Positions 16,368 through 34,713 of a stretch of DNA of 64,000 nt are shown in pieces. The DNA comes from a virus. The stretch's first letter is position 1, and every line of letters starts with the position of its first letter. The stretch covers positions 1 through 64,000 of the IMG/VR virus record IMGVR_UViG_3300037322_000275; one strand, given 5' to 3'. The notes under the pieces were generated by a model. That model was given only the letters and a program-made list of their open reading frames with translations, was not told the origin of the DNA and made no database searches. A program made the position numbers and the translations under genes.

Positions 16368-19300
16368 ATGGAAGACGAAGATATAAATTTAAATTCCTCA
16401 CCTGGTGAGGTTCACAAAAAGATATTTAAAAATAAAACTCTTGCATTTAAAGATAGACCCTTTAAAAATTTAACAGACCAATCAGGAAATAGAGTTGTTC
16501 ACAATACAGGATTTGGTAAATCTAAGTATGACAAAGATATAATATGGGATGCTGAAGTAGACGATAAAGATATTCAAAGCTCTCTTAACGAACATCGTGC
16601 TCAAAGACAAAGTGGTTTAGAACAAACAGGATTTGGTTTATTAAGAACTACTGCAAAAGTGGCTACAGAAGTTGCAAAATTACCGTTTGTTATTGGTGGG
16701 CTTGCTGTAGCACCATTTGCTGAAGAAAATCAAGGATTAGAAACAGCTTTTAATAATCGATTTATTAAATTTTTTGATGGACTTAATGAAAATATCAAGG
16801 AACAACTACCTGTTTATACTAAAGAAGCTGTAGAAAAAGGTGGTTTTATGGACCATATTGCCTCTTCTGCTTTTTGGGCAAACGATGGTGCTGACGGTTT
16901 AGGTTTTATGTTATCAATGTTAGTACCAGGTGGTGTATTTAAAGCTCTCGGTGGATCTGCTAAATTATTTGGAGGATCTGTAAAAGCTCTACAATATGCA
17001 AGATTTGGTAAAGGTATTGAAGGTGCTCGAAAAGCAATAACTGCCACAGGACTTACAATCAATAAATTAGACAATATAATGATTCCTTTGTTCAACACTG
17101 TTGCAGAATCTGGTGCTGAAGCTAAAGGTGTATCTGATGATTTAATGTCTAGAAAGAAAGAATTTATTGCTGAACAAATAGAGATGTATGGGCAAACACC
17201 CGAAAAAGCTGAGGAACTGTTTAATGAACAAAAAGCTCTTGCAATGCAGAATACATTTAATTCAAATCTTGCAATATTAGCAATACCTAATTATTTACAA
17301 GCAAAATTGTTATTTGGTAAAACACCAAGTAAAGTATTGTTAGATAAAGTTAAATCTGAAGTAGGTAAAACAACTGTGAAAAATACAGTATTAAAAGCTG
17401 GGAAAAGAATTGCAGGTGCGTTTGCATCTGAAGGTTCTGAAGAAGTTGCACAGACTTCAACTGAACATAGAAACGTAGAAAAAGCTTTAAACAATAAACT
17501 TGGTAAAAGCTTTACTGACGACTATAATTTAATTACAGCAGGTGAAGATTTTATTAGAACATTAGGTACAACAGAAGGTCAAATTGCTGGTTTTTTAGGT
17601 GGAATTTTAGGTTCTCCTATTTCAGTAGTTGGTGGTTATAAACAAGATCTTGCTGATACTGTAGAAACTGCAAGACTTAGAGAAAAAATTAATGGTCAAT
17701 CATCAGCGTTTAGAGATATTTACGACACAGACATATATGAACAAGAAGAATATCTAAATCCTGAAACAAACGAAAAAGCTTTTAGACCAAAGGAAGTTGA
17801 TGGTAAAAAAGTAATTATTCCTGAAAATGTAGTTAAAATGAAAAAAGCTCTTGATTTAAATGAAGGGCTTTCTGAAAGATATGACAAAGCTGTTGAAGAA
17901 GGAGATTTAGAAACAATTGAAAAGCTTAAAAAACAAGGAGAATTTAATTTAATTACTAATTTTATAGGAGAAAATAAAGTTACTTTAGATGCTTTAAATG
18001 AAAATTTAAAAACATTATTTCCTGTTGTACAACCCGTAAATGGTGAAAAGTTAAGTCCTGAACAACTTTCTTCTAATTTAGAAAACAAGACAAGAGCAGA
18101 CAATATTATTAAAAAAGCAACACAGTTACAAACTGATTTAGTTTCTTTTAAAGACATGTCTACATCTTTAATAAAATTGAATAATCCTGAAAGCACAGAA
18201 ACACAAGTAAGTGAGTTTTTAAATAATCTTGCTTTTGCCTTTATTTCTGAACGTTCTGAAGAATTTGATGTAAAAGAAAAGTTAGATATTTTAATAAAAC
18301 AAAAAGCAGAATTAGAAAAAGGTAGTAGTACTGTAATTGAAGAAGTCCTAAATCCTAATTTTGTTGAAAATATAACTTCTGAATTTGATAGAACTGTTAC
18401 AACAAGAAGTACTAACCCAAGACTTGAATTACTTGATAAACAAATAAAGAATTTAAAAGAAGAATTAAAAAGTTCTGAAAAAGCAATTAACTCAACAATT
18501 TGGGATAATAAATTTCTTAATAAACAATTTAATAACCGAATTATTGCAGACAAAAAAAGTAAGGAAAACTTTGAAGTTAAAAACACAAAAAAAGCAGATG
18601 AAATTATTAAAAAAATTAATAGTGCTACAACTGTTGAAGAACTAAATAATTTGCCAAAAGTTAATGAAGATATAGATAAGGTTATTCAAGAAAAAGTTAA
18701 AAAAAAGAAAGAAGAATTAAAAAAACAAAAAGAAGATAAAGAAAAAGAAAAACGTAAAAAAGCAAAACAAGAAGACGAAGATTTTAATACACCTTCTGTA
18801 ACAGATATCGTGTCTACAGAAGGTTCTGTTATTACAGATGTCATTATACCTAAAGATAATGCAAATAATACTGTAGAAGAGCTAAAAGACATTGAAAATG
18901 GTACTGTTGATAGTGGCAAAGGTGTTAAAGTAATAAGTGCTGACAGAGAAACAGGTGAAGTTATTCCATTCATTGAAGAATTTTTCCCTTTGTATATGGC
19001 GTATGAAAGAACACCTGTTAATAAAAAAGGTAATGAAGTTGGCTTTCAAATAAATCAAAATCCTGGAAAAAATCCAAAAGTATTAGAAGCCCTTACTGCG
19101 TATAATAAAGGAGACTTTTCAAACATACAGTTGTTGCTTGATTATTTACCTATTAATGTACAATTTACTACTGATGTAAATGCACCAATTGAAACTAAAA
19201 GAAAAACAAATGAGACAGATCCTGCTACTCAAATACTAAGAGAAAGTCTTATATTCGCTTTGTCTAAAGGTGTTCCAATTGAAAACATTACAACCACAAT

Positions 19301-21266
19301 ACAAGATCAATACAAAGGACTTTTAAAGGTAGAATCTGATACTGCTGAAAACAATTTATTAGATTTAGATGGTGTTACTGATTCAAAATATATTAGAGAT
19401 AATTTACACGTTATAGATATTCATGGTGAATTACAAAACATAATTACAGGAAAAACTACTAAATTTAAAAATTTACTTACAAGTGAAATAGATAGAACTA
19501 AAAACAATGGTGCAGGTGAAATTTATTTAATGATTCCTCAAGCTAATGGTACAATGTTTCCTTTAAAATTAAACATTAAAAAACTATCTAATGAAAAAGC
19601 AATTGGTTTAGCAGATATATATAAAGAAATGTTAATAAACAAGTTGTCTTATGATACAACTATTTCTGAAGTTAGTGAAGACTTGAGAAATTTTTTGTTA
19701 AGTGAATTTAAAGAAGAACTTAAGATAGTTGGAGGTAATCAAAATGACATAAAACTTAGTGAAATTGTTGATTTGTTAGTTTATGAGTCTGAAAATATAA
19801 AATCTCAAATTAGACTTGAAGATGGTGTTTTGTACTATGGTGACGAAACAGTAGATGCTAACTCAATTGAGGAAAACTTTACTGGCGTTGTAAACTTTTT
19901 AACAGAACAAAAAAGACATCAAATTAAAATTTCTCCAAAGTCTGAGACAGACAACAAAAAAACAAATATTCAATCTAATTCATCTGATTATCTTAACTAT
20001 CTTGTAGAAAACAAAATATTATCTACAAATGCAGTTGTCAATGAACCTACATTTCAAGGTTATTCTAATATTTATTTAAATACTCTTGTTAAAATTGAAG
20101 GTCTTGCACAAGCATTTTCACAAAATAATAAAACAGAACTTGATAAAATTAATAAAGCAGAGCAAGAAGCGTTAAAACTTTTAATAAAAGAAAAAGAAAA
20201 GATTGAGAAAAAGATTGAAAAAATTGAAAAAGGTGCTACAGAACTACAACAATTAATAGATACACTTAATGCATTAAATACTATAATAAATAAAACAAAA
20301 GTCAAATACCAAACACAAAGAGATGCTTTAAATAACCTATCCCAAAATGAAGTTGATGTAGCTAACGAAGTAAAACCACAAATAAATACTCCTGTTATAA
20401 AAGAAGATATTCTTGATTCTAATCAAGCAAAAATTGATGAATTAGAGGTAGAGAGAAAAGAAGAGTTAAATCCTGAAACATTAGATATTGATAATATTAT
20501 TTTTGGTAAATCTATTTCTGGTTTTCATGGAGGAGCAAAAGTTTATGATGAATTTAGAGTAATACCTAATGATGAAAACACATTAGGAAATGGAGTTTAC
20601 TTCTTCCCTACAGACACTAACGCAAAAGGATATGCAGAAGCTATTGGAGGAGGGGTTAGTAAAGCTACTATAGCATTAAAAAAACCATTTGTTATTGATT
20701 TTAGAAAAAGATTTTACGAAGATGCAGATGCTATTGAAAATAAATTTTACGAGAATAAAACAGCACAACAAAAAACAAATTGGTTGGTAGAAAACGGGTA
20801 TGATGGCGTTATAAACATTCCCTTTAATGGAAATATTAACAATGTTGAAGTAATGGTTGTAAATATAGAGGATGTACAGTCAGTAAAAGAGATTAATACC
20901 AAATACGATGCAAAAATTAAAAAACTAAATGAAGCAACACTTACTTTAAAAGAAAATAAATCAGATAATACTAGGAATTCTAATAATAATTCCGTATCTT
21001 TACCAAATATAACACCTGAAAACATTTCTACATTTCAATCTACTTCAGATATTCCAGGAACTGTTGAAAATATAGAAAAAATAAAAACACAAACTGAAGT
21101 ATTCAAAGCTTCTACTAATCCTAGAGAAAAAGCACAAGATATTAAAAGAATGTCTTTATTGTTTAATAAAAAAATAAATGGTACTTTAACAAAAGAAAAT
21201 GAGATTGCAAGTTTTGAGAATTTCAAAAATGCTTATCCAAATGAGTACAAAAAAATATGTAAATAA
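16368..21266 (+). CDS. Giant virion cargo protein with C-terminal ADP-ribosyltransferase-like domain
   Basis: 1632 aa; Gly-rich hydrophobic N-terminal helices (EGSEEVAQ, GFLGGILG); FHGG..F..GNGVYF..A.GYA..GYDGVI..E motif near the C-terminus. Confidence 0.75.
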   Translation: MEDEDINLNSSPGEVHKKIFKNKTLAFKDRPFKNLTDQSGNRVVHNTGFGKSKYDKDIIWDAEVDDKDIQSSLNEHRAQRQSGLEQTGFGLLRTTAKVATEVAKLPFVIGGLAVAPFAEENQGLETAFNNRFIKFFDGLNENIKEQLPVYTKEAVEKGGFMDHIASSAFWANDGADGLGFMLSMLVPGGVFKALGGSAKLFGGSVKALQYARFGKGIEGARKAITATGLTINKLDNIMIPLFNTVAESGAEAKGVSDDLMSRKKEFIAEQIEMYGQTPEKAEELFNEQKALAMQNTFNSNLAILAIPNYLQAKLLFGKTPSKVLLDKVKSEVGKTTVKNTVLKAGKRIAGAFASEGSEEVAQTSTEHRNVEKALNNKLGKSFTDDYNLITAGEDFIRTLGTTEGQIAGFLGGILGSPISVVGGYKQDLADTVETARLREKINGQSSAFRDIYDTDIYEQEEYLNPETNEKAFRPKEVDGKKVIIPENVVKMKKALDLNEGLSERYDKAVEEGDLETIEKLKKQGEFNLITNFIGENKVTLDALNENLKTLFPVVQPVNGEKLSPEQLSSNLENKTRADNIIKKATQLQTDLVSFKDMSTSLIKLNNPESTETQVSEFLNNLAFAFISERSEEFDVKEKLDILIKQKAELEKGSSTVIEEVLNPNFVENITSEFDRTVTTRSTNPRLELLDKQIKNLKEELKSSEKAINSTIWDNKFLNKQFNNRIIADKKSKENFEVKNTKKADEIIKKINSATTVEELNNLPKVNEDIDKVIQEKVKKKKEELKKQKEDKEKEKRKKAKQEDEDFNTPSVTDIVSTEGSVITDVIIPKDNANNTVEELKDIENGTVDSGKGVKVISADRETGEVIPFIEEFFPLYMAYERTPVNKKGNEVGFQINQNPGKNPKVLEALTAYNKGDFSNIQLLLDYLPINVQFTTDVNAPIETKRKTNETDPATQILRESLIFALSKGVPIENITTTIQDQYKGLLKVESDTAENNLLDLDGVTDSKYIRDNLHVIDIHGELQNIITGKTTKFKNLLTSEIDRTKNNGAGEIYLMIPQANGTMFPLKLNIKKLSNEKAIGLADIYKEMLINKLSYDTTISEVSEDLRNFLLSEFKEELKIVGGNQNDIKLSEIVDLLVYESENIKSQIRLEDGVLYYGDETVDANSIEENFTGVVNFLTEQKRHQIKISPKSETDNKKTNIQSNSSDYLNYLVENKILSTNAVVNEPTFQGYSNIYLNTLVKIEGLAQAFSQNNKTELDKINKAEQEALKLLIKEKEKIEKKIEKIEKGATELQQLIDTLNALNTIINKTKVKYQTQRDALNNLSQNEVDVANEVKPQINTPVIKEDILDSNQAKIDELEVERKEELNPETLDIDNIIFGKSISGFHGGAKVYDEFRVIPNDENTLGNGVYFFPTDTNAKGYAEAIGGGVSKATIALKKPFVIDFRKRFYEDADAIENKFYENKTAQQKTNWLVENGYDGVINIPFNGNINNVEVMVVNIEDVQSVKEINTKYDAKIKKLNEATLTLKENKSDNTRNSNNNSVSLPNITPENISTFQSTSDIPGTVENIEKIKTQTEVFKASTNPREKAQDIKRMSLLFNKKINGTLTKENEIASFENFKNAYPNEYKKICK
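20972..21002 (+). promoter_or_regulatory. Candidate intragenic promoter upstream of the vRNAP gene (TAGG-N19-TATCTTTA)
   Basis: TAGGAATT identical to the sites at 5533 and 43950; same spacing; one mismatch to TAnnTTTG. Confidence 0.55.
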
Positions 21267-21268
21267 TT

Positions 21269-24200
21269 ATGGCTTGTAAATTTATAGTAAACGGTCAAGA
21301 GTCAGTCTTGTACAACAAAATATTAGAAGCTTACAATGGTGATGAGGAATTGGCAACAGTTCTTCATTCCTATTTTAAGAATGATAATCAGTTCATTAAA
21401 AACTTTGGTAATTGGGAACAGGACATGGTTTCAGAAATTAAATCTGTAGACTATGTTTTTAACAAAGATATTTCTAGAATTGAAGAAAACGGTGAACCTC
21501 AACTTTTTAAGAATGAAACATTACGTGATTATTATTACATAGATAAAGATAATAACAAAGTTTACATTATCACAAACACAAAAAGTTTAAATTCTTTATT
21601 TGAAAATTCTGAGATTGAACAATTAACTAAAGTTCTTGTACGTGACTTTTTTAAAAATAACTTAAAGATTGATTTTGAAAATATTGACTTAGCTAATAAA
21701 TCCGCAGATTTAAAAAGTGTCATCACAAACAAGATTAACGAAAGAATTAGTGTTTTTAGAGCGTCTGAAGACATTTTATTTGAAGAAAGAGCAGATTTGT
21801 TAGAGCAAGCTTTAGCAAACAACCTAGACGAAATTTTAAAGAATGTAGTTGATTCTTTTGAACAAAGTAAAATCAAATATAGAGAACAACTACAAAATAC
21901 TGATGAAGATTTAACATTATCTGAAATTGAAGAAATTGAAAATGAAAAAAATCCTACATTTGGAAAGGCTTCATTTGAAAGTAGTACTAAAGGAAACATT
22001 TCAGCAAATGTTAAATTTAGATTGTCTTTAATTGAAGACCTTACAGAAAAAGATTATTTTCTAAATGATGTTGTTTACAAAAGTTTTGATTCAATATATA
22101 ACGATTTATTAAAAGTTTTAAATAATGTTGTTGCTATAGAATTAAATGGTGTTCAAGAAGACAAATTTGAATTGTTAAAATCAGAAATTTTAAAGCTTGT
22201 AAATAAAAAACCTTATTTTAAGGAATTATACAGAATTTTATCTCAAGAAGATATTTCTGAAAACATTAAAAATGAATTTACTGTTGCTTTTAATTTAAAT
22301 AGTAACAATTTTAATACAACAGAAATTACTGAAACAATTGTTGACAAAGCTAAAGTAATTGATATTACTGTAAAAAATGTTGCAAAGTCTTCTAGAAAAG
22401 AATCAGATGTGTTATTCATATGGAACAAGAACTTTAAAGAAGATTTTGTAACACTAAATGACAAGGGTAGACTTGTAGTTAATGAACAAGACAAGTTAGT
22501 TTTATTAGCTTTAAAAAAGAAGTTAGATAAAATTAATGTATTTCAGCAGGAAGCTGTTAACAATTTTGTGGAAATATTAAGAGATTTAGGTGTAGAGTCT
22601 ACAGAAAAAGGATTTCTACATTTTTTAGATAATTCAGAACTAGTTAACAATGATAAAGGTTTATCTGAAAAATTGTTTAATAATGCAATTCGTAATTTAA
22701 AATTCTTTTTGAGAGATATAACAACAGATCAAATAAAAAATCTAGATAATTCTTTTTTAACACAAAGTTTATTTAAAGAACTTGCTATTGCAGAATCTTT
22801 TTATTTAGTTGAACAATCAGATTCTTCTGTATTTACTGCAGGAAAACAAAAATGGACGTTTTCATATCCTTCGTATTTATCTAATACAATATTGTCTTGG
22901 AAAAAAGACAGAAGTATTTTGGAAAATCATTACTATTCTTCTAAATCAAATGAAAGTTCTCACTGGATAAAACACTTTCTTGCTTTAGGAGATACCTATG
23001 AAGTAGATGATTTTTTACCTAGAGGTCAGCAAGAACTTTTAAGAATTGAAGAATCAAAGAAAAGAATCAATGCTATTGAGTTGGGTTCTTTTAATGTATT
23101 ACAAACTTCTGACAATTCTTCTGAATCAAAAGATGGTAAACAAATAGATAAAAAAGCATATATTCTTGATACTGTAAACAAAGCTATTGCATTTAACAAA
23201 AACGTACCTTCATATCACAGAACAACTACTCCTGGAGATAAAGCAACTCAATACGAGTTAAATGTTGGTGTAAATGTACCTACAAATGCACGATATGGTG
23301 GAGAACACGGTATTGTGTTAAATGCAAATGTTATTGACATAGTATTTGAATACTTTAATGGTGAATATAAAAGAATGAAGTTTGAACGAGCTTTCGTGAA
23401 TAATGAAAAAAATAAAAACAAACTTATTACTTACTATCATTTAGGTGCGGGTAATGCTTTTAAATCTCAATTTTTTCCAGGTTTAAGTAATTCTTCAATT
23501 AACGCTACAGCAAAAGATTTTGGTTCTGATTTTAACTTAATTTACAATGAAAACGGAGATGCATATTTAGAAGATTTAAAAGGCTCAGTATTTGAAGAAT
23601 CTATAAAGTCATATATTGCAAAACAACTTTCTGAAGATATTTCAAATACAGTTGGTGAACTAACTGAAAAAGGATTGTTTAAACAGAAAGCAGATAGTTC
23701 TTATGAAAATTTAGGTATAGACAGTAAAGTTTGGTCTTCATACGGTTCAAATCCTGAGTTAAAGGTTGCTTCAGATTTTTTTATTAATGGTTTAATTTCT
23801 CAAGTGGAATATTCAAAGATGTTTGCAGGAGATATTGCTTATTACAAAAATCCTGTAGATTATAAAAAACGTATTCCTGCAACTTATACTGATGGTCTTT
23901 ATCAACGATTAAGTGAAAAAAACAAAAACATAAATATTGCTGTTATACAGAGTGTTAATATAGGAAGTCCCTTTCACAGCGAAATTGAAGAATTAATTGG
24001 TGAAACAATTGCTAAAAACTATGCTGAAGGTGAAATTAACTCTGCTGATGCTCAAGCATGGATTACTCCTGCTAGATGGAAAGATGTATGGACAACTTTA
24101 GGTAAGTGGAACAATGTTCAATCTGCTTATGAAAAAATGATGGGTGAAAATAGAGAGCCTTTTACTAACGAAGAACTTAAAAAAGTAGCACAACCTATAA

Positions 24201-27200
24201 AAGGTGTGTATTTTCAGAATGTTAATGGGCAACCAATATTTTTAAAATATTCTCAAGCAGTATTGTCACCAAGATTAAGAAAAGGGAATGATTTAGAAAT
24301 CTTGTATAACAAGATGGTTAATAATAAAGATGCAAACGGAGAACTAGCCCCAATTGATGAAATATTAACGTTTGACGCAATTAAAGTAGGTTCTAACTTA
24401 CCATCTTTATCTCACAATGCAGAAGGTCGTATTGTAGAAGATTTTGAATTAAATGTGATGACAATACCTGCTAACGGATGGAAATTACAACAGGATTTAC
24501 CAACTAAATCATTTAAACAAACAGATCTAGGTTCTCAGTTACAAAAAAACATATTTCAAGGATTAGCTTTTAATCTAGAGAAACTGTTTGAAGTAAGTGA
24601 TGACGAAGAACTTACAGGTAATGAAATGATTCAAGCAATTTCTGAAGTTGTTGGTGATCTAACTGAAATGGGTTATGAATCGATACTTAAAGAATTTGGT
24701 ATAGATGATAATTCTGTTATTTCAAATATCAATGGGTTCTATGGTTTGATAATTTCTGAATTAAAGAGTAGAAATGGTTCTAAAAACGTAATTAAAGCAT
24801 TAGAAGCTGAAACTACGATTTATGGAATACCTCAAGCACAAAAGAAATTACAAAATATATTTAGTTCAATTATGACTAAACGTATTTTAAAAATTAAAAC
24901 AAATGGTGGCTCATTTATTCAAATGTCTAATTACGGTTTAAATAAAGAAAACGCAGAAAATCAAAAAGTCATATGGAGTCCTAATGCATTGTCTACAGTA
25001 CATGAACCTCAATTTTTAAAAGATGAAAAAGGTGAATATGTATTATCTAAGTCAGGTAAAAAAATAATAAGACCAGGTGGTATACTAATCTCAGGTTCTT
25101 TTTTAGCTAAATATATTCCTAATTATGCAGACTTTGATGCAATTGATTTATTTGTAGGTCGTGATGGTAAACCACCAATGATAGATAAACAAATACAAGA
25201 CAATATTATAGGATACCGTATTCCAAACCAAGGTTTATCTTCTAATGATGCGTTACAGATTGTAGGAATTCTTCCAGAAGAAAATGGTGACACTATTGTA
25301 GCCTATACAGGTATTACAAAGAAAACAGGTTCAGATTTTGATATTGATAAAATGTATATTATGTTTCCTTCTGTAAGACCTGTCTACAATAAAACAGACG
25401 AAGTTTACAACTACGTTAATCAAACTTTAAAAGGAAATAACTTTTCAGAAACAACATTAAATTATTTTAATTTTTTAAATAAGTTTAAAGGTAGTGATAC
25501 AGAAATAGATATTGAATTAATAAAAAATGAATTTGAATCATTAAAAACTGATGAAGAAAAATATGAATTTTTTAATAATCAAAAGCAAACTGTTTTAGAC
25601 ATTCTACTAAATAAAGAAAATGCAGATGTAGATATTGTAAAAGAAGTCTTTAAAAAATTTGATATAAAAGTTAAAAGATTACAGTATATTAAGTATGACA
25701 GTAGTAAAAAAACTAAAGAAGGCTTACAAAACAGATTAATAGAATTATATAAAACAGTTCTACTCAATGAAAATGTAATTGCAGATGTCATGACTCCAAT
25801 TGACTTTAATTTTATGGAAGATGACATTAAAAATATCTACAGAGAAGAAAGATCAACAAACTTAAGTATTGTAAATCCTTTAAGAGATATTGATGTTAAA
25901 TACAGTTTTTTAGCAGGTAAAGCAGGTGTTGGACAACAAGCTAATGCATTAATGGATTACGTTTTGGGTAGTTTATCTAATTTAAGTATTACAAATTTAA
26001 ATATTCCAAAATCAAACATTCGTTTTGACTCAGAGTTTTCAACTGAATTATCTAGTGAGGATCTTGCTTATTATAAAGAAAAATTAGATCTTTCAGATGA
26101 ACAACTAAATCAAGTTAAATCCATTAAAATTGGTAATTCACTGTCTGCAGTTTTGAATGCATTTGTAGATATTGCTAAAGATCCTTTTATCACTAAAGCA
26201 GGATGGGTTACAATGACCACTAACACAGGTAACTTGCTGTTACGTGCAGGACTTCATCCATTTTATGTAAATGCTTTACTGTCACAAACTGTCATTAAAG
26301 ATTATGTAGAATTTAGTGAACAATATGAACAATCTAATAGCCAAGGTCTTTCTACTTTAGATGCTTTTATTAAACAAGAATTTGGTAAAGATACATGGGA
26401 AAACACAAAGAAAAAGAATGTACTAAATTTACCATTAAAAAGTTTAAGAGAATCCATTGGTAAAGAAGGTTTACAAAATGATAGAATGAATACACTGTAT
26501 ACCTTTCTAAACTATCAGGGAGCTTCTAAAGTTTTAAAAGAAAATATAGATGCTTCTAAATTTATGGTTAATGGTTTAGGTCAAAATGTCACATCGTTGC
26601 GTATTTCTAAAAATTTAGTAGATTCTATTAATCAAAAAGAAGAAAGATACAACAACGGACTTGAACTGAATCCTAATAAAAATGTAATTCAGGGATTTGA
26701 AACTAAGTTTGTAAATCCTAATGGTACTGAAAGTTCTTTTTCAAAGATATATAATTTTGTTATTACAAAACCTTTGAAAATTGTAAAAGCAAATCCTAAA
26801 TTATTTTTATCTGCAAATGAAACAATACAGCAAACATTTAACGAAATTTCTCACAGTATTTCAGGTGACATTTTAACAAATGACGAATTAGGTGTAAAAC
26901 TTGAAAGTAGTTTTTATAGTTATACAATGTCTGGATTTAAGCAATTAAGAATGAATATTGATGAAAAAAGATATTTATTAACAACTTTTGTGAAAGAGTT
27001 TGAAAAATTTCAAGTTGACAATGATGGAATATATTCTCTTGTAAATGAATTAATTGTAAAGTCAGGTGAAAAGAAAACAAATTATATTTCATTAAATAAC
27101 AGAAGTAAATCTAATGAATTTGAAGACAAAATGACAGGCTCTTTTATGGACTTGTTAAACAATGAACCTGAGTTTGCAGAAAATTTAATTAAGTATTCTT

Positions 27201-29062
27201 ATTTAACTTCAGGTTTTACAATGAATTCAAATCAATTTTTTACATATATTCCTACAGAATGGTTTATTAGAAATCAAATCAATAGATTTATAATCGACAC
27301 AGGTAGAGAGTACGATAACTATGGAAAAATTAATGACAACACTTTTATAGATCAATTCTTTTTAGATAGACTAGAAGATAAAAAAATTGTTAAAAACATT
27401 GGTGAAAAGCAAATTACAACTGTACTTGGAAAAAAAGACATCAAAATGAATGGTTTTGTAACAAAAAAACAAGGTAAAGCACCTTACTACTTTACTAAAT
27501 CTACAGAAAATGGTAAAATACATTACAAGTTAATAGGTTATACTGCTGGTTTTGAAGGAATTTATTCTAGATTTACATTAAATACTAAAGGAGAATATGT
27601 AGATATTCAACCATTAAATGCAAAAGATAAACAAGGTAATAAAATATTTAGTTTTAGTAAAGATGGTTTAATATTAAAAGCAACAAGTTCTGGTGTCGCT
27701 AAGTTAGCAGACAAAGCAATTCAAGATTTTATGCAAGACAGTGTTTTTTATAATAGAGATTACTTTTTTAGAGGTAGTATTGTTAGTGATGAATCTGCTT
27801 ATGATGATCTTGTTTATGACAAAATAGATAATTCTAAAGAACCAATGTTTGTTGAACCTATTGCTAAAGATGAAACTGAAAAAATTGACACTGTAGAATC
27901 ATTAAGAGCTGAAGAACAAGTTGAATTACAGCAAACTTTTCCAAATATTATTCCTGTTAACGGAAAAATTATCAAAGAAAGTTTAAATACAGATGAAGAT
28001 ATTGCAACTTTTGAAAAAATTTACGATAGGTATGATAAGTTAATAACTCCTTTATTAGATAATCAATTACAAGAGTCAGATTCTATTTCAGAAGTTAAAA
28101 CTGAAACTATGGTTAAAGAAAGTGTTTCTAAGCCAACAACTAAATCTGAATTATTAAAACAACTATTTACTAAAGACACTATTTCAGATGTAGTTAAAGG
28201 CTCTGTTGTTGATTATAATGATAAAAAATGGATTGTTTGGAATATTTCAGATACTGGTAAAGCACAGTTAATAGATACTGAAGGTAATAAATTTAGTGGA
28301 ACTCCTAATTTAGATAAATTAACTAAAATTGGTGATTATATTACAACTGATTTTGATGGTACTGATTACATTGTAACTGGAAATGAAAATATATATTCAT
28401 TAGCTACAGGTAAACAAGTATTTACAAATGGTGACGGATCTACAGTTAGTAAAAAAGCTAAGATTATTAATCAAATAATGAAAGAAAATGATTTAGTATT
28501 ACCTGAAAATACTCTTAAAGAAATTAAAGAAACTGTTAATTCAGAATTACCTACAAGATCATTTGAAGATATTGATAAAGAAAATACCAGAAGTCGTTTA
28601 ATTAAAGAAGGTTATGAAATAGTAACATATGACAAAAATGAAAAAGCTTCCTATGAAAGAGTTACTGAAGATAATGTTGATAACGTAACAGATGATAATA
28701 TTTCTTTTAATGAAAGAGAAACGGATTTTCCATTAGGATATAGTGTTATAATTGATAGTTTATCTTCAATTGACTATGGGGATGCAAGTATTAAAGATAT
28801 TTATGAAGATTATAGAGTTGAAAAAGATCAAGAAACTAAAGAGGTAATGAGATTGTTTTTAAACAGTAAAGGGTTTAATTTAAAAACACAAGAAGAAATT
28901 GATTTTGAATTTGTAGATCCCAATCAAATAGATATGTTTTCATCTGCCGCAAATAATTTTGAACAAGTTAAAGAGCAGTGGTTAAATAGCGGTAGAACTG
29001 AAAAAGATTGGAATAATATGGAAATAGAAGAAAGAGAATACGTAATTAAAAACTGTTTATAA
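21269..29062 (+). CDS. Virion-packaged double-psi-barrel RNA polymerase (phi14:2 gp66-like)
   Basis: GYRIPNQG and catalytic GSDFDIDK (DFDID at 25334-25348); DAQAWIT, NAFVDIAKDP; 2597 aa. Confidence 0.93.
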   Translation: MACKFIVNGQESVLYNKILEAYNGDEELATVLHSYFKNDNQFIKNFGNWEQDMVSEIKSVDYVFNKDISRIEENGEPQLFKNETLRDYYYIDKDNNKVYIITNTKSLNSLFENSEIEQLTKVLVRDFFKNNLKIDFENIDLANKSADLKSVITNKINERISVFRASEDILFEERADLLEQALANNLDEILKNVVDSFEQSKIKYREQLQNTDEDLTLSEIEEIENEKNPTFGKASFESSTKGNISANVKFRLSLIEDLTEKDYFLNDVVYKSFDSIYNDLLKVLNNVVAIELNGVQEDKFELLKSEILKLVNKKPYFKELYRILSQEDISENIKNEFTVAFNLNSNNFNTTEITETIVDKAKVIDITVKNVAKSSRKESDVLFIWNKNFKEDFVTLNDKGRLVVNEQDKLVLLALKKKLDKINVFQQEAVNNFVEILRDLGVESTEKGFLHFLDNSELVNNDKGLSEKLFNNAIRNLKFFLRDITTDQIKNLDNSFLTQSLFKELAIAESFYLVEQSDSSVFTAGKQKWTFSYPSYLSNTILSWKKDRSILENHYYSSKSNESSHWIKHFLALGDTYEVDDFLPRGQQELLRIEESKKRINAIELGSFNVLQTSDNSSESKDGKQIDKKAYILDTVNKAIAFNKNVPSYHRTTTPGDKATQYELNVGVNVPTNARYGGEHGIVLNANVIDIVFEYFNGEYKRMKFERAFVNNEKNKNKLITYYHLGAGNAFKSQFFPGLSNSSINATAKDFGSDFNLIYNENGDAYLEDLKGSVFEESIKSYIAKQLSEDISNTVGELTEKGLFKQKADSSYENLGIDSKVWSSYGSNPELKVASDFFINGLISQVEYSKMFAGDIAYYKNPVDYKKRIPATYTDGLYQRLSEKNKNINIAVIQSVNIGSPFHSEIEELIGETIAKNYAEGEINSADAQAWITPARWKDVWTTLGKWNNVQSAYEKMMGENREPFTNEELKKVAQPIKGVYFQNVNGQPIFLKYSQAVLSPRLRKGNDLEILYNKMVNNKDANGELAPIDEILTFDAIKVGSNLPSLSHNAEGRIVEDFELNVMTIPANGWKLQQDLPTKSFKQTDLGSQLQKNIFQGLAFNLEKLFEVSDDEELTGNEMIQAISEVVGDLTEMGYESILKEFGIDDNSVISNINGFYGLIISELKSRNGSKNVIKALEAETTIYGIPQAQKKLQNIFSSIMTKRILKIKTNGGSFIQMSNYGLNKENAENQKVIWSPNALSTVHEPQFLKDEKGEYVLSKSGKKIIRPGGILISGSFLAKYIPNYADFDAIDLFVGRDGKPPMIDKQIQDNIIGYRIPNQGLSSNDALQIVGILPEENGDTIVAYTGITKKTGSDFDIDKMYIMFPSVRPVYNKTDEVYNYVNQTLKGNNFSETTLNYFNFLNKFKGSDTEIDIELIKNEFESLKTDEEKYEFFNNQKQTVLDILLNKENADVDIVKEVFKKFDIKVKRLQYIKYDSSKKTKEGLQNRLIELYKTVLLNENVIADVMTPIDFNFMEDDIKNIYREERSTNLSIVNPLRDIDVKYSFLAGKAGVGQQANALMDYVLGSLSNLSITNLNIPKSNIRFDSEFSTELSSEDLAYYKEKLDLSDEQLNQVKSIKIGNSLSAVLNAFVDIAKDPFITKAGWVTMTTNTGNLLLRAGLHPFYVNALLSQTVIKDYVEFSEQYEQSNSQGLSTLDAFIKQEFGKDTWENTKKKNVLNLPLKSLRESIGKEGLQNDRMNTLYTFLNYQGASKVLKENIDASKFMVNGLGQNVTSLRISKNLVDSINQKEERYNNGLELNPNKNVIQGFETKFVNPNGTESSFSKIYNFVITKPLKIVKANPKLFLSANETIQQTFNEISHSISGDILTNDELGVKLESSFYSYTMSGFKQLRMNIDEKRYLLTTFVKEFEKFQVDNDGIYSLVNELIVKSGEKKTNYISLNNRSKSNEFEDKMTGSFMDLLNNEPEFAENLIKYSYLTSGFTMNSNQFFTYIPTEWFIRNQINRFIIDTGREYDNYGKINDNTFIDQFFLDRLEDKKIVKNIGEKQITTVLGKKDIKMNGFVTKKQGKAPYYFTKSTENGKIHYKLIGYTAGFEGIYSRFTLNTKGEYVDIQPLNAKDKQGNKIFSFSKDGLILKATSSGVAKLADKAIQDFMQDSVFYNRDYFFRGSIVSDESAYDDLVYDKIDNSKEPMFVEPIAKDETEKIDTVESLRAEEQVELQQTFPNIIPVNGKIIKESLNTDEDIATFEKIYDRYDKLITPLLDNQLQESDSISEVKTETMVKESVSKPTTKSELLKQLFTKDTISDVVKGSVVDYNDKKWIVWNISDTGKAQLIDTEGNKFSGTPNLDKLTKIGDYITTDFDGTDYIVTGNENIYSLATGKQVFTNGDGSTVSKKAKIINQIMKENDLVLPENTLKEIKETVNSELPTRSFEDIDKENTRSRLIKEGYEIVTYDKNEKASYERVTEDNVDNVTDDNISFNERETDFPLGYSVIIDSLSSIDYGDASIKDIYEDYRVEKDQETKEVMRLFLNSKGFNLKTQEEIDFEFVDPNQIDMFSSAANNFEQVKEQWLNSGRTEKDWNNMEIEEREYVIKNCL

Positions 29063-32000
29063 TGAGTTGTATAAATTTTAAACATCCTGAGATTTTAAGA
29101 ATGGCGGAGGAACTTAATGTTTCTCCTGCTGTTTTAGGAGCTAAAGTAGGTGTGTGGCAAGAAAAAAATAATGTAGAAGATAGATTTCCTACAAGTGAAG
29201 AAGTGTTAGCTTATAATGAAGTAAACATGTCTTTAAAAGCTGTAGATATATTGTTATCCGATAAAGCTAAACAAGTATTTGATAAAGGCAAAAAATCCAA
29301 TTGGGATTTAAATAAAACATTAACAGAACTTCAAATACCTAAAGATCAAAAACAATTAATATTAGATAGCGGTAAAACGACAATTGATAATATTGTTACA
29401 GATTTATTAGCTAATTATAGCTATACAGTAGAAATAAATACTGCTAAATACTATAATAGGAATAATGAAAATAATTCATCTTTTTCTGTTGAAGAAGATA
29501 TTGGAATGGAAGGTCAATCTTTTGGATGGACAATTGTAAGCAATGGAGAACTTGGCAACGTAAGCGGTTTAACAGATAATTCATTTAAAACCAAAGAAGA
29601 AGCAGAAGCGTATTTAAAATCAACAAAGAAAGAATCGTTGTTAAACACTAAACATTATTCTAATCTTACAGTTCCAGGTGGTACTAACTATACAGAAAAT
29701 GAAATAGCTACACCTGCAATTACTCCTAGTATTAAAGGTCATGCTCGATTTGCTACAGATAATGGTATAGGTTGGTTTAGAAGTGATGATAAAGCACGTA
29801 TTGAAGAAGTAAGAATAGGAAAAGCTTTTGATAAAGGTTATTTAACTGAAGAAGAAAAAGAAGAATACTTTGCGGAAGGTAACAGTCAAAGAGATTTAAA
29901 TGAAATGTTAAAAACACATAAAGGGATTGAAACTTCTAAAGCACAAACAGGTATCACTAAAACAAGACGTATTCTTGAAGTACAATCTGATTTATTTCAA
30001 AAAGGTAGGGATAAAAAAAGTATAGTTAAACCTAAATATAATAATATAGGTGTTAGAGAAGATGAGATTAATCATAATAATAAGACTTATATATTATTAC
30101 CTCAGGGTTATTTTGAAGATTCTGATGATAATTTAGTTATAAGTTCAAAATTAAATGATACTAATTCGTCGGATATCCAATTAGTTAGAGCTAAGGAAAA
30201 TAATTATCTTACTATTGATGATAACTTGTATGAAATATTAGAAAGTAAATCTTTACAAGTTAAAGATAGAAATAATGCAGAAAATGAAATTAAACCTCAA
30301 AACCAATTCTTACAACTTCTAAACAAGGACAATAATTGGGTTAACTTCTTTATAAAATCTATCATACAAAATAGTGCTAAAAAAGGTTATGAAAAAGTGT
30401 TATTTCCTAGTGGTGATACAGCAGCTAAAATAGAAGGACATGAAACTGTACAAGGGTTTATAGATACTAAAGAAGCTAGAATCAGGATTTTAAAAGAATC
30501 TCCATCTATATATTATAGATTTTTAGATAAAGATGGTTTTACTGAAACTCAGTATTTAAATATTAAATATGCAGAAGAATATAAAAAAAATCATAATAAA
30601 AATTGGAAAGTAATTGATTTAACTAAAGAAAATAATATAAAAATAGCTCAATTAGAAAAAGAAATAGAAGATGCTAAAGCAGGTAAACTTAAAATATCCA
30701 GTGTAGCTAAATTTTATGAAGAAACTGTATTTAATGTATTAAAAAAACAAGGGTATAATCCTGTAAGAATTACTGATGAATATGGTAACAGTTGGTATAA
30801 AGTAAATATTGAAAGCAAAAGAGACAACTCTATGATATTTATGAATAGAGCTAAACTCAAGACTCTTGAAGGTTCTAAAGAAAATAAATTAGATTGGACA
30901 GACAGTACAGAACAATTAACAACAGTTAAAGAAGAATTTGTAGATTATAGCAAAGAAAATGCATATGTATTGTTTGCTAATAAACAGGGTAAAATTACAG
31001 CTGACGAAGTTTTGGATAATATCTTAAATAATTTTTCAGATTTTTCTGAAATTGGTTTAGAATTTATTCAGAAAGCTAAAAATTTAATTAGTAAATCTGG
31101 AGTTAAAATTCAGTTTGTTAACGAAAGTGTGTTTAGTGATAAAGACGTAATTATGGACTTTGATGCAAGTAGTAACACAATACGTATCTCTAGAACTAGA
31201 TTGTCTGAATTTGATACACAAACAGTTGTCAGTACTTTTTTACATGAACTTGCACATAGTCAAACAGCTGAAGCATTGTTAAATCCTGTAACTTTTGAAC
31301 AACAAGAATTTAAGTTACTTATTGATAAAATGTTTTTAAAATACAAAACTCAATCTAACAACAGTGGAAGTTATGGTTTTAAAAATACAATGGAATTTGT
31401 TGCTGAACTATACTCTAATCCTGAATTTAGAAAAGAAGTTGAAGCTTTAGATAAAAGTTTTTGGAATAAATTTATTGATGCTGTACGCAGATTATTTGGT
31501 TTTAAAAAGAATAATGAATATACAAAACTAATAAACGAAATTACTGAAAAAGTAGAATCCGATCAATCTGAATTTAAAGGTATTAGAAATCAAGTTATTT
31601 TTGAAAAAAGAACTACCTCTAGAAACAAAGCTCAAACTATTGAAGACAAATTACAAAAGACTTTAAATAAAGCTAAAGACAATTTAGACAATCTTTTAAA
31701 TCAAAGTAAAGCCTACAAACGTAAGAATGAAGAAAAAGGAAAAGCTTTTGAAAAACACATACAGGAATTGATTGATGAAATTGAAAAAGTTAGTTTAATT
31801 GATCAATGGAAAGGTGTTTCTATATATGTAAAATCAATGCTTAATACAATTAATCAATTAAACGATAGATTAGACAAAGAAGATTTTACTAAAGAAAATG
31901 GTTTAGAATTGATAGATTCATTTAGAACATACATGTCTACATACGATTTAGTAGAAGATGTTAAAGATTTAGTTACTAGTTTAACTAATGAAAAAATTGA

Positions 32001-34713
32001 CGAAGTAGGTTTAGAAGAAATCAGTCAGTTAAAAGCAATTTTGAAAGACACTGTTGGTGGACATGCTATTTTAGAAAGTCGTTTTAATTCTAAACTTTCT
32101 GTAATATTAAAAACTACAATAAATAACATCAGATATTTACCTGAAATTGAAGACGATTGGAGAAAAAAGTTAGCTGTTGAATACGCTAAACAAGGTATTA
32201 CAGGTATCAGTAAGACAGAATGGGTTGCTCAACAAATGAATAATGCATACAAAGACGAAATACAAGAAGATCTAGATAACTATGTAGATAACTTGTTAAC
32301 AGGTGTTGGTACAGACATTTCTGCTGCCTCTGCTTTAATTTTAGATGGTATTAATAATAATTCCAGACTTGTTAGTATTGTAATGAATTTTATCACTCAA
32401 GCCAGAAATAAAATTATTGAACAAACTACTGAAGGAGATATTAAAGAAAACAAACTGTTTACTGCATTAACTAATGAAAAAGGAAAAAATGCTTCTACTA
32501 AAAAACTTTATGGAAACATTTATGACCAGGATTCTGCAGGTAACACAACTCTTAAAGGTGAATATTCAATCAAGTTTAAAGAAAAGTTTGATCTCTTAAG
32601 AAATAAAGTAAGTAGTACTTTAGAAGAACGTGGTAGATCGTCTAAAGAATTTAAAGCCGTATTAGTTGAATATCGTAAATGGTTAAAAGAAAATACAGTT
32701 TACAAAAATAAAAAAAGAACACCTGTTGCTAAATGGAAAAATGACCTGTCTAAATTAACTAAAGTTGAAAAAGAAATTTTGGATTACTTTATTGAAACAA
32801 CTAAATTAGTTGATGAACAAACCTATGGCATACAGTCTTTAATTGTAGATGTTAAAGGTGCAACATTTTATACATTACCCGCAGTAACTAAAAGTGATTT
32901 AGAAAGAGTTGTAGACGGTAACGCAAAAGGTTTAATTAAAGATAAGTTAAAAGACATTGGTTCAATTAGACCTGACGATATTGGTTACGATAAAAAGAAT
33001 TTAAACAGTAAAGGTGAAATTGTTAGATATCAAAGAGTTCATTACAGAGGTAAATTATCTTCAGATCAACAGTCTTTAGATTTATTTACAGTTAATCGTT
33101 TAAACCGAGTTAATGGTCTAAATTACAAAGAAAAAAATGCAATTGTATTACAAGTTGAAGCAATTAAGTTAATTGCTAAAAACAAAGAATACTTTCTTAA
33201 AAATCCAGGTGGTAAAAACATACACAATATGTATTCTACTAGAGAAAAGGAAGGAACTCAACGAGGTAATAAATCTAACGAGTTTAAAATGATCGACAAT
33301 ATGATTGAAAAAAATATATACGACATTTTACACATTACTTATGGTAATGTAGGACCTATAGATTTAAATAAGGCAATTAGTATCACTAACGGTTGGGTTG
33401 CATCAGTAGGTCTGTCTTTAAATGCTTTTTCTGCAGGGGCTAACATTTTAAATGGACAAGCTCAGATATTTTTAGAAAGAATTGCAGGTAACCATTTAAC
33501 TAAAGGTTCTGTTACTAAAGCACATAAAATGTATACTTCTGATTTAGGTGGTATAATGAAGGATTTTGGTAATCCAATTAAAACTTCGTTTGTTAATCAA
33601 GTAAATCAAATGTTTGATACTTTTGGTGGGTTTAGTGTAAAGCAACAAGAATTTATCAAAAACACAATTGCTAAAACTGTAATTAATTCAGAAACACTGC
33701 AATTTATGCATGAAGGTGGTGAACACTATCTTCAATCAATAATGGTTATGGCAACACTAGAATCAATTAAGGTAATGGATTCTAACAATAACTACATTGG
33801 CAAAGACGGTAATGTGACAACTAAAGATAAAGCTGCTTCTGTTTTAGATATGTTATCTAAAGATAGTACAGGTTTATTGAAATTAAGTGATAAAGTTGTT
33901 TATTCAGACAGAAATTTAAATTCTAAAATAAATGAAGGTGGTAAAGAGCAATTATTACTCTTTGTAAAAAAGAAACTCTTTGATACGATGGGTAATTATG
34001 ATTCTAATTTACAACCCGAACTTTACAGACACTGGTATGGTAAGTTAGTAATGTTGTTTAGACGTTATTTAATACCACAGTTGGTAACTAGATTTAGAGG
34101 TGTTTCTACAGCTTTTGTTTCTGAAGAAAATTTAGAAGATGGAGATATTCATTTTAATGACGCATTAAGAACAACTGAAGAAGGTTCATACGTTAGTGCT
34201 TTAAGATTTTTAAGACATGGTATATATCCTGCATTAAGAAAGTTAAAATTTGACTTACTCAGTACTAATTGGAATGAACTAGATGATGACAAAAAAGCAG
34301 GAATAAAGAAAACAGTTGTTGAACTAGCATTGACTTCTGCACTTTTACCATTAATAGGTTTATTAGCTGCAGGTGCAGCAGGTGATGACGACGACAAAGA
34401 ATGGTTATTTACAATTGCATTTTTAGCAAGAAGATTAGAATCTGAATTATCACAATTTAGAGATCCTAGAGAAGCAACAAAAATTACTAAATCACCAATT
34501 CCTTCGTTGAGAGTAATAGAACAAACTTTAGATATACTGGATTATTTATTACCTTGGAATATTACGGAAGTAAATGATACTTATCAATCTGGTAAAAATA
34601 AAGGTGAACTCAAAATCAAAGTTAAAGCTATCAAATTAATACCTATAATAAGTAAACTAGAAATAACTTCTGAAGAACTTTATAAAGGTCTTGAATCAAA
34701 GTACGGAAAATAA
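29062..34713 (+). CDS. Giant virion cargo protein with zincin metallopeptidase domain
   Basis: 1883 aa; FLHELAH (31243-31257) plus EFVAE..SNPEF; N-terminal EVQSD domain; hydrophobic C-terminal helices. Confidence 0.8.
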   Translation: MSCINFKHPEILRMAEELNVSPAVLGAKVGVWQEKNNVEDRFPTSEEVLAYNEVNMSLKAVDILLSDKAKQVFDKGKKSNWDLNKTLTELQIPKDQKQLILDSGKTTIDNIVTDLLANYSYTVEINTAKYYNRNNENNSSFSVEEDIGMEGQSFGWTIVSNGELGNVSGLTDNSFKTKEEAEAYLKSTKKESLLNTKHYSNLTVPGGTNYTENEIATPAITPSIKGHARFATDNGIGWFRSDDKARIEEVRIGKAFDKGYLTEEEKEEYFAEGNSQRDLNEMLKTHKGIETSKAQTGITKTRRILEVQSDLFQKGRDKKSIVKPKYNNIGVREDEINHNNKTYILLPQGYFEDSDDNLVISSKLNDTNSSDIQLVRAKENNYLTIDDNLYEILESKSLQVKDRNNAENEIKPQNQFLQLLNKDNNWVNFFIKSIIQNSAKKGYEKVLFPSGDTAAKIEGHETVQGFIDTKEARIRILKESPSIYYRFLDKDGFTETQYLNIKYAEEYKKNHNKNWKVIDLTKENNIKIAQLEKEIEDAKAGKLKISSVAKFYEETVFNVLKKQGYNPVRITDEYGNSWYKVNIESKRDNSMIFMNRAKLKTLEGSKENKLDWTDSTEQLTTVKEEFVDYSKENAYVLFANKQGKITADEVLDNILNNFSDFSEIGLEFIQKAKNLISKSGVKIQFVNESVFSDKDVIMDFDASSNTIRISRTRLSEFDTQTVVSTFLHELAHSQTAEALLNPVTFEQQEFKLLIDKMFLKYKTQSNNSGSYGFKNTMEFVAELYSNPEFRKEVEALDKSFWNKFIDAVRRLFGFKKNNEYTKLINEITEKVESDQSEFKGIRNQVIFEKRTTSRNKAQTIEDKLQKTLNKAKDNLDNLLNQSKAYKRKNEEKGKAFEKHIQELIDEIEKVSLIDQWKGVSIYVKSMLNTINQLNDRLDKEDFTKENGLELIDSFRTYMSTYDLVEDVKDLVTSLTNEKIDEVGLEEISQLKAILKDTVGGHAILESRFNSKLSVILKTTINNIRYLPEIEDDWRKKLAVEYAKQGITGISKTEWVAQQMNNAYKDEIQEDLDNYVDNLLTGVGTDISAASALILDGINNNSRLVSIVMNFITQARNKIIEQTTEGDIKENKLFTALTNEKGKNASTKKLYGNIYDQDSAGNTTLKGEYSIKFKEKFDLLRNKVSSTLEERGRSSKEFKAVLVEYRKWLKENTVYKNKKRTPVAKWKNDLSKLTKVEKEILDYFIETTKLVDEQTYGIQSLIVDVKGATFYTLPAVTKSDLERVVDGNAKGLIKDKLKDIGSIRPDDIGYDKKNLNSKGEIVRYQRVHYRGKLSSDQQSLDLFTVNRLNRVNGLNYKEKNAIVLQVEAIKLIAKNKEYFLKNPGGKNIHNMYSTREKEGTQRGNKSNEFKMIDNMIEKNIYDILHITYGNVGPIDLNKAISITNGWVASVGLSLNAFSAGANILNGQAQIFLERIAGNHLTKGSVTKAHKMYTSDLGGIMKDFGNPIKTSFVNQVNQMFDTFGGFSVKQQEFIKNTIAKTVINSETLQFMHEGGEHYLQSIMVMATLESIKVMDSNNNYIGKDGNVTTKDKAASVLDMLSKDSTGLLKLSDKVVYSDRNLNSKINEGGKEQLLLFVKKKLFDTMGNYDSNLQPELYRHWYGKLVMLFRRYLIPQLVTRFRGVSTAFVSEENLEDGDIHFNDALRTTEEGSYVSALRFLRHGIYPALRKLKFDLLSTNWNELDDDKKAGIKKTVVELALTSALLPLIGLLAAGAAGDDDDKEWLFTIAFLARRLESELSQFRDPREATKITKSPIPSLRVIEQTLDILDYLLPWNITEVNDTYQSGKNKGELKIKVKAIKLIPIISKLEITSEELYKGLESKYGK

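Follow-up and report, generated by a model that had tools for sequence, protein, structure and literature searches.

Three giant proteins encoded one after another by a crAss-like phage contain almost no cysteine, and the question raised by this locus is why the few cysteines that remain lie exactly where one protein ends and the next begins. The locus belongs to the IMG/VR record IMGVR_UViG_3300037322_000275, of which positions 1-64,000 (G+C 28%) were analyzed and are referred to here as the window. The first protein (P1), the virion RNA polymerase (vRNAP) in the middle and the last protein (P3) comprise together 6112 amino acids (aa), and translation of the open reading frames (ORFs) revealed four cysteines (Cys), each no more than three residues from a junction-facing end (Table 1). 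The outer ends of the trio, namely the N-terminus of P1 and the C-terminus of P3, carry none. A reading of this stretch made earlier from its letters alone (hereafter the original prediction) had given these Cys counts and positions, the bare outer ends and two Cys-free proteins of 580 and 607 aa encoded in the same region, all of which were confirmed by translation. The other ORFs of the window mostly contain 0.4-3.8% Cys. In related loci, ordinary ORFs contain 1.5% Cys, compared with 0.027% for internal Cys of the chain proteins in loci read with translation table 11, and have Cys in the first 9 residues in 11% and in the last 9 residues in 16% of cases. Because so few ordinary ORFs have a terminal Cys at either end, the window pattern of four junction-facing Cys is far beyond chance, and its conservation down to 21-30% identity removes the doubt that a single locus would leave.

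Comparison of related loci revealed that these residues appear and disappear together with the gene boundaries. Two scans of IMG/VR yielded about 160 loci, which were reduced to 108 non-redundant loci by removal of near-duplicates. Polymerase ORFs that also hold P3 were recognized with a hidden Markov model (HMM) of P3, loci from gut samples were read with TAG = Gln, and Cys was scored as N-terminal in the first 9 and as C-terminal in the last 10 residues. Where P1 and vRNAP are split, the polymerase ORF always had Cys among its first 9 residues (42/42), and where they are fused Cys was absent from this position in every case (51/51). In 33 of 36 cases, Cys was one of the last 10 aa of the P1 partner at the split junction; the remaining three have it at -15, -24 and -32. 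At the boundary between vRNAP and P3, split polymerases carried Cys in the last 10 residues (79/80) and the following ORF in the first 9 (79/80), and the fused forms were without it (17/17). Among the outer ends of the chain, Cys was found at 0/51 N-ends and at 2/53 C-ends, both of the latter being explained by further splits or breaks. Pairs of the form xC(x)-stop and MxC, which the original prediction expected to be conserved and to move with gene splits and fusions, behave in this manner across the 108 loci. As an evolutionary rule, this strict co-variation of the Cys pairs with the splitting and fusion of genes has strong support.

The rule is also visible in individual loci. Nine all-in-one P1+vRNAP+P3 proteins (4730-5639 aa) contain no Cys whatsoever. 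In L095, L099 and L120, where P1 is separate and the polymerase is fused to P3, exactly one Cys was found in 3600-3800 aa, at position 3-5. Locus L027 (3890 + 1167 aa) carries a new Cys pair at its split, which is missing from its unsplit sister L022 (4392 aa). When whole proteins were compared in pairs with blastp, the fused forms were seen to contain colinear P1 and vRNAP parts, and the stretch between these parts is free of Cys. HMMs built from the P1 tail and from the vRNAP head did not locate the junction in the fused forms, the conservation of both regions being too low. In a tree of the polymerase core computed with FastTree, with a minimum of 13 and 9 architecture changes, the independent contrasts (8/8, p 0.008, and 6/6, p 0.03) all had the same direction. 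An independent-pair test on the first 80 loci had given 3 contrasts (p 0.25), and the second sample was then added.

The same terminal-Cys pattern is present in the homologous trios of two cultured phages, g067-g066-g065 of phi14:2 and gp47-gp50-gp49 of crAss001. In phi14:2 (31% identity), the only Cys of g067 is its last residue, g066 (2180 aa) has Cys at positions 3 and 2179, and the sole Cys of g065 is residue 3. In crAss001 (about 21-24% identity), Cys is found at -3 in gp47, at 5 and -9 in gp50 together with one internal residue, and at 5 in gp49; the C-terminus of gp47 and the start of gp50 are encoded 11 kilobases (kb) apart on opposite strands, and both retain their Cys. The annotations of these phi14:2 proteins, and that of g069, rest on tandem mass spectrometry of virions, and gp66 of this phage is translocated into the host, where it transcribes the early genes. 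Virions of crAss001 contain gp47, gp49 and gp50 as 'cargo', the tail channel forces their partial unfolding, and several inter-subunit disulfides join structural proteins of the particle (PMC10172136). Polyprotein forms of crassvirus cargo have been assumed to be cleaved into subunits (phi14:2 preprint).

Interruptions that leave the protein itself unbroken were without a Cys pair. In L002, a 58%-identical relative, a group I intron (14007-14284; Rfam RF00028, 85 bits, E 2e-22) lies inside the vRNAP motif, between DFD and IDK. Both ORF halves are without Cys at this break, and the window's own vRNAP gene has no such insert. The vRNAP gene of L029 changes frame in the A-rich run AAAAAAGCTAGTAAAAAAGAAAAAGAAAG (13660-13700), either through an assembly error or through slippage, and has no Cys at the break. 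A fusion of vRNAP and P3 called in L094 proved to be an artefact of automatic assignment of TAG to Gln; under the standard code the two proteins are split and obey the Cys rule. Subsets of the loci L037-L084 and L147-L167 (human-gut sample 3300045988 and others) have late genes that need TAG = Gln, with 1-10 in-frame TAG codons near the DFD motif. Internal Cys of their chain proteins reaches 0.12%, about four times the level of the table-11 loci, and the terminal pair is kept.

Additional genes stand between the chain genes in a number of relatives. Ferritin-like genes coding for 157-167 aa were observed exactly in the Cys-tipped junction gap of at least eight of them, between P1 and vRNAP in some and between vRNAP and P3 in others; the four tested matched Pfam PF00210 (E 1e-12 to 1e-18), and none occurs in the window's own record. 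The closest relative of the window, G001, has about 6 kb of genes between vRNAP and P3, coding for proteins of 781, 500 and 440 aa with ordinary Cys content. Partners parted by the ferritin-like genes or by this insert (0.5-6 kb of inserted genes) retain their Cys. Just before P3, G001 also encodes an acidic, helical-looking ORF of 113 aa with Cys at 5 and -4, which looks like an extra chain link; it has no significant similarity to the window proteins, and no family was found for it beyond a weak match to FadA. Between vRNAP and P3, four divergent loci have a further ORF in which two Cys lie close together (CxxxxC or Cx6C).

The immediate surroundings of the terminal Cys are variable. At the N-terminus, Cys is residue 3 in about half of the cases (range 2-7), and residue 2 is Ala or Ser in 81/125, so that Cys would be the second residue after removal of Met. 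At the C-terminus, Cys usually occupies one of the positions from -1 to -4, with -10 as the limit, and has Lys or Arg beside it in 36% of cases vs 13% in the background. Across 18 relatives, no column other than Cys is invariant within the C-terminal 200 aa of P1, and at the start of vRNAP only M1 and C3 are invariant; the C2596 column of vRNAP is invariant in a four-way alignment. AlphaFold2 (AF2) models of the window proteins place vRNAP Cys3 in a short N-terminal coil ahead of a small hairpin and a helical domain. The last 200 aa of P1 are predicted to be helical throughout, the confidence being low except over the final 50 residues, and end in a confident helix (predicted local distance difference test, pLDDT, 88-96 over the last 50 aa) with Cys at its tip. 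Co-folding of the C-terminal 200 aa of P1 with the N-terminal 350 aa of vRNAP (18-row alignments) gave a score of 0.07 against a mark of 0.32, an outcome that weighs neither for nor against binding.

The only precedent found for such a signature is the pre-ejectosome of the cyanopodophage A4 (Anabaena phage A-4L), in which a disulfide between gp27 Cys1715 and gp26 Cys5 was resolved by cryo-electron microscopy inside the capsid, once the C-terminal helix of gp27 has docked on gp26 (PNAS 2025, PMC12002296). In the A-4L record NC_024358, Cys1715 is the single Cys of gp27 (1717 aa) and Cys5 that of gp26 (1114 aa). The two systems have in common consecutive genes, large ejected proteins and a single Cys at the upstream C-end and the downstream N-end, and the modeled tail of the window P1 likewise ends in a confident Cys-bearing helix. 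Comparison of A4 gp27 and gp26 with P1, vRNAP and P3 gave no blastp match at E <= 0.1, so that the likeness appears, as far as BLAST can see, to be one of design and not of descent. The A4 structure is one bond and not a rule: it has one link rather than a chain of two to three, no RNA polymerase takes part in it, and the link was described as a local stabilizer of a pentameric ring, not as a device for threading or as a rule that tracks fusion and fission. The original prediction had been aware of no description of such a link, which is only partly right: for crassviruses, no description of a terminal-Cys cargo link was found in the literature searched, but a head-to-tail disulfide as such had already been seen in A4 (PMC12002296).

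Suppression of Cys in ejected proteins is known from N4-like phages (Schitoviridae), where it has been explained by passage through the oxidizing periplasm (PMC11445570), in agreement with what the original prediction stated on N4 vRNAP. These phages likewise eject a giant virion RNA polymerase into the host, and the zero-Cys state of this polymerase is that of the nine all-fused crass-like loci. Unlike the window vRNAP, the N4-type enzyme is a single protein without Cys, with a T7-like fold unrelated to the two-barrel type, and no terminal Cys pairs have been reported for it.

The explanation that we favor, with a probability of roughly 60%, is that P1, vRNAP and P3 are joined head to tail by bonds between their near-terminal Cys, most likely disulfides, into a thread equivalent to a polyprotein. 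The C-terminal Cys of each protein would bond the N-terminal Cys of the next, standing in for the peptide bond of a polyprotein, and the thread would be the functional equivalent of the single polyprotein encoded by many relatives. Elimination of the remaining Cys would prevent loops and wrong or internal cross-links, in keeping with the Cys avoidance of N4-type ejected proteins. With links within 1-10 residues of the chain ends, the joined chain would be nearly linear and might be packed as one string, which would later be pushed, partly unfolded, through the narrow tail; near-terminal links would suit this passage, because the tail channel forces partial unfolding. The reducing cytoplasm would then plausibly open the links and free the polymerase. 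A disulfide is the most likely bond since the signature has been solved structurally in one system, A4, where it forms a disulfide, and since virions of crAss001 hold inter-subunit disulfides; the disulfide chemistry in crass-like phages, the stoichiometry, the order of ejection and the release by reduction are what we infer. The pairing idea of the original prediction is upheld as an evolutionary conclusion, the co-variation suggesting that each C-terminal Cys works with the next N-terminal one; its 1:1:1 stoichiometry, threading in gene order and release by cytoplasmic reduction stay predictions.

Several observations weigh against such a chain. Phages are assembled in a cytoplasm that is reducing, and the environment of gut crassviruses is anoxic, which makes the timing of disulfide formation doubtful. 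Four Cys also allow possible wrong pairings, and nothing obvious joins the right ends, as the P1 tail has a mean identity of 18% and the sequence around its Cys is barely conserved. The rule has exceptions, mainly L028, L116 and L159, in which the C-terminal Cys of vRNAP is absent or lies 130-290 residues inward: in L028 both Cys are absent at one boundary, and the vRNAP Cys of L116 and L159 stands 130-170 residues away from its usual place, adjoining the extra ORF. In L009, L127 and L146, the Cys of P1 is found 15-32 residues from its end. The trees were computed with FastTree and have long branches, and the ORF calls are automatic. No crass-like phage has given direct evidence of the bond. 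The phi14:2 preprint mentions neither cysteines nor a covalent cargo link, and where the crAss001 paper (PMC10172136) deals with the cargo proteins it reports neither a cysteine nor a disulfide.

In one alternative, the ends share a metal ion (Zn, Fe or Cu), or are held by some other link that depends on Cys, with the same role of a clasp. Such a clasp fits the co-variation data equally well and would be workable in the reducing cytoplasm and the anoxic gut, where disulfide formation is doubtful; the ferritin-like genes at the junctions of at least eight relatives give a loose hint of metal or redox chemistry and nothing stronger. Each end, however, offers one Cys with no conserved His, Cys, Asp or Glu beside it, and a site with two ligands is weak. 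The sole solved case of the signature is the A4 disulfide, and we regard a metal clasp as unlikely.

A further alternative is that each terminal Cys serves its own protein, through anchoring to the capsid interior, the portal or the DNA, through modification or through formation of homodimers. The many disulfides between structural proteins of crAss001 would be compatible with separate roles, and which Cys meets which rests on no direct observation here. Independent roles are, however, hard to reconcile with the gain and loss of Cys as pairs exactly at internal boundaries and with the bare outer N-ends, and the all-fused proteins, which are packaged without Cys, argue that neither packaging nor anchoring as such depends on Cys. 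Homodimers formed through both ends of vRNAP would lead to networks rather than to a defined cargo. Taken with these points, separate roles are even less probable than a metal clasp.

The weakest alternative is that the Cys codons merely accompany a nucleotide junction signal (translational coupling or a re-initiation motif like TGTAAATAAnnATGnnTTGTAAA), or that the pattern stems from chance or from ORF calling. It can draw on the first junction, which the window shares almost letter for letter with close relatives and which has TGTAAA on both sides, but is very improbable given that the parted partners of crAss001 and of the loci with inserted genes keep their Cys, that the position (3-7 and -1 to -10) and neighbors of Cys vary freely at 21-30% identity and that merely 11-16% of ordinary ORFs have a terminal Cys. 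The gene arrangement of crAss001 excludes a junction signal at the DNA level and places the signal at the level of the protein. A split intein or protein splicing was rejected too, as the Cys stand at the very tips of the proteins, no intein blocks accompany them and junction Cys are absent from the fused forms.

The identity of the genes places the proposed chain in a known cargo block. The window phage is a marine-type crAss-like phage. A nucleotide search of a phage collection gave no match. The window contains a large block of co-oriented genes, in which the 580-aa and 607-aa genes are followed by P1, vRNAP and P3; the 580-aa protein is encoded upstream of the chain and outside it, the 607-aa protein immediately upstream, and homologs of the latter in relatives almost always have 0 Cys. 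With giant co-oriented genes flanking vRNAP as in the g067/g066/g065 synteny, and with HExxH in P3, this is the RNAP-associated cargo block of crassviruses. P1 occupies the position of phi14:2 g067 and crAss001 gp47. Neither P1 nor vRNAP was assigned a family in PHROGs and Pfam, P1 having no Pfam match at E <= 0.1. The middle protein is the Crassvirales virion RNA polymerase of the phi14:2 gp66 type, a two-barrel RNAP, as identified by its sequence similarity to PDB 6VR4 (phi14:2 gp66; phmmer E 1.9e-212, residues 46-2058 against 63-2044; tblastn 30.6% identity over 2008 aa). Its catalytic columns S1355, D1356, F1357, D1358 and D1360 are invariant in an alignment that includes phi14:2 and crAss001, and its C-terminal region is about 400 aa longer than that of phi14:2 gp66. 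Homology and synteny suggest that the window vRNAP is packaged in the virion and delivered into the host. P3 has a HELAH motif at residue 728 (window 31243-31257) and a weak SprT-like Pfam match (E 0.014, below the cut-off), and the motif agrees with phi14:2 gp65, for which a zincin protease domain has been reported. At the first junction, the TAA stop of P1 is followed by the next ATG 2 nucleotides on; at the second, the P3 start overlaps the vRNAP stop (TAATG).

Table 1. Coordinates of the cargo genes, their terminal Cys and the genes inserted at chain junctions; positions refer to the window unless a locus is named.
Feature	Position	Strand	Remarks
580-aa protein, homolog of phi14:2 g069 structural protein	12796..14538	+	0 Cys; blastp g069 E 3e-48
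607-aa protein, 'MANRYD' family, homolog of phi14:2 g068	14540..16363	+	0 Cys; blastp g068 E 1.6e-6
P1, first chain protein, 1632 aa	16368..21266	+	single Cys1631; N-terminal region matches crAss001 gp47, E 5e-6 (blastp)
P1 Cys1631	21258..21260 (TGT)	+	penultimate residue, ...KKICK-stop
vRNAP, middle chain protein, 2597 aa	21269..29062	+	phmmer PDB 6VR4; Cys only 3 and 2596
vRNAP Cys3	21275..21277 (TGT)	+	MACK
vRNAP catalytic DFDID motif, residues 1356-1360	25334..25348	+	within GSDFDIDK, residues 1354-1361
vRNAP Cys2596	29054..29056 (TGT)	+	penultimate residue, ...KNCL-stop
P3, last chain protein, 1883 aa	29062..34713	+	blastp g065 E 1.8e-141, crAss001 gp49 E 5e-31; single Cys3
P3 Cys3	29068..29070 (TGT)	+	MSC
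Ferritin-like gene	L002:16701-17204
Ferritin-like gene	L006:17230-17727
Ferritin-like gene	L010:8017-8520
Ferritin-like gene	L123:14267-14758
Ferritin-like gene	L134:11197-11670
Ferritin-like gene	L135:11308-11784
Ferritin-like gene	L136:9300-9800
Ferritin-like gene	L138:11296-11781
G001 insert region	L088:387-6562		= G001:C1:72386-78561
Extra CxxxxC/Cx6C ORF	L028:13419-16904		1161 aa
Extra CxxxxC/Cx6C ORF	L029:17511-19232		525-697 aa
Extra CxxxxC/Cx6C ORF	L116:16845-18422		525-697 aa
Extra CxxxxC/Cx6C ORF	L159:16172-18265		525-697 aa

Crassviruses are the most abundant phages of the human gut, and their cargo of nearly 700 kDa, including the polymerase that starts infection, must be packed, ordered and passed through the tail, a question that a covalent but reversible end-to-end tether would address if the proposed chain is true. 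Such a tether would also explain the free interchange of polyprotein and split forms. For annotators, the terminal Cys pair provides a simple rule for separating genuine boundaries between proteins from introns, frameshifts or recoded stops, and it correctly flagged L094, L002 and L029. Because the unrelated cyanophage A4 has the same signature, a general solution may apply: a modular 'split polyprotein' code in which each gene break is restored by a reversible disulfide between terminal Cys, P1, vRNAP, P3 and any further pieces are packed and threaded as one string, and reduction in the cytoplasm cuts it, freeing and activating the polymerase. We advance this code, which may be general and convergent among podophages that eject large proteins, tentatively and at somewhat less than even odds. 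The terminal Cys of the crassvirus cargo may in this way turn the single structural observation in A4 into a principle that applies to ejected phage proteins in general.

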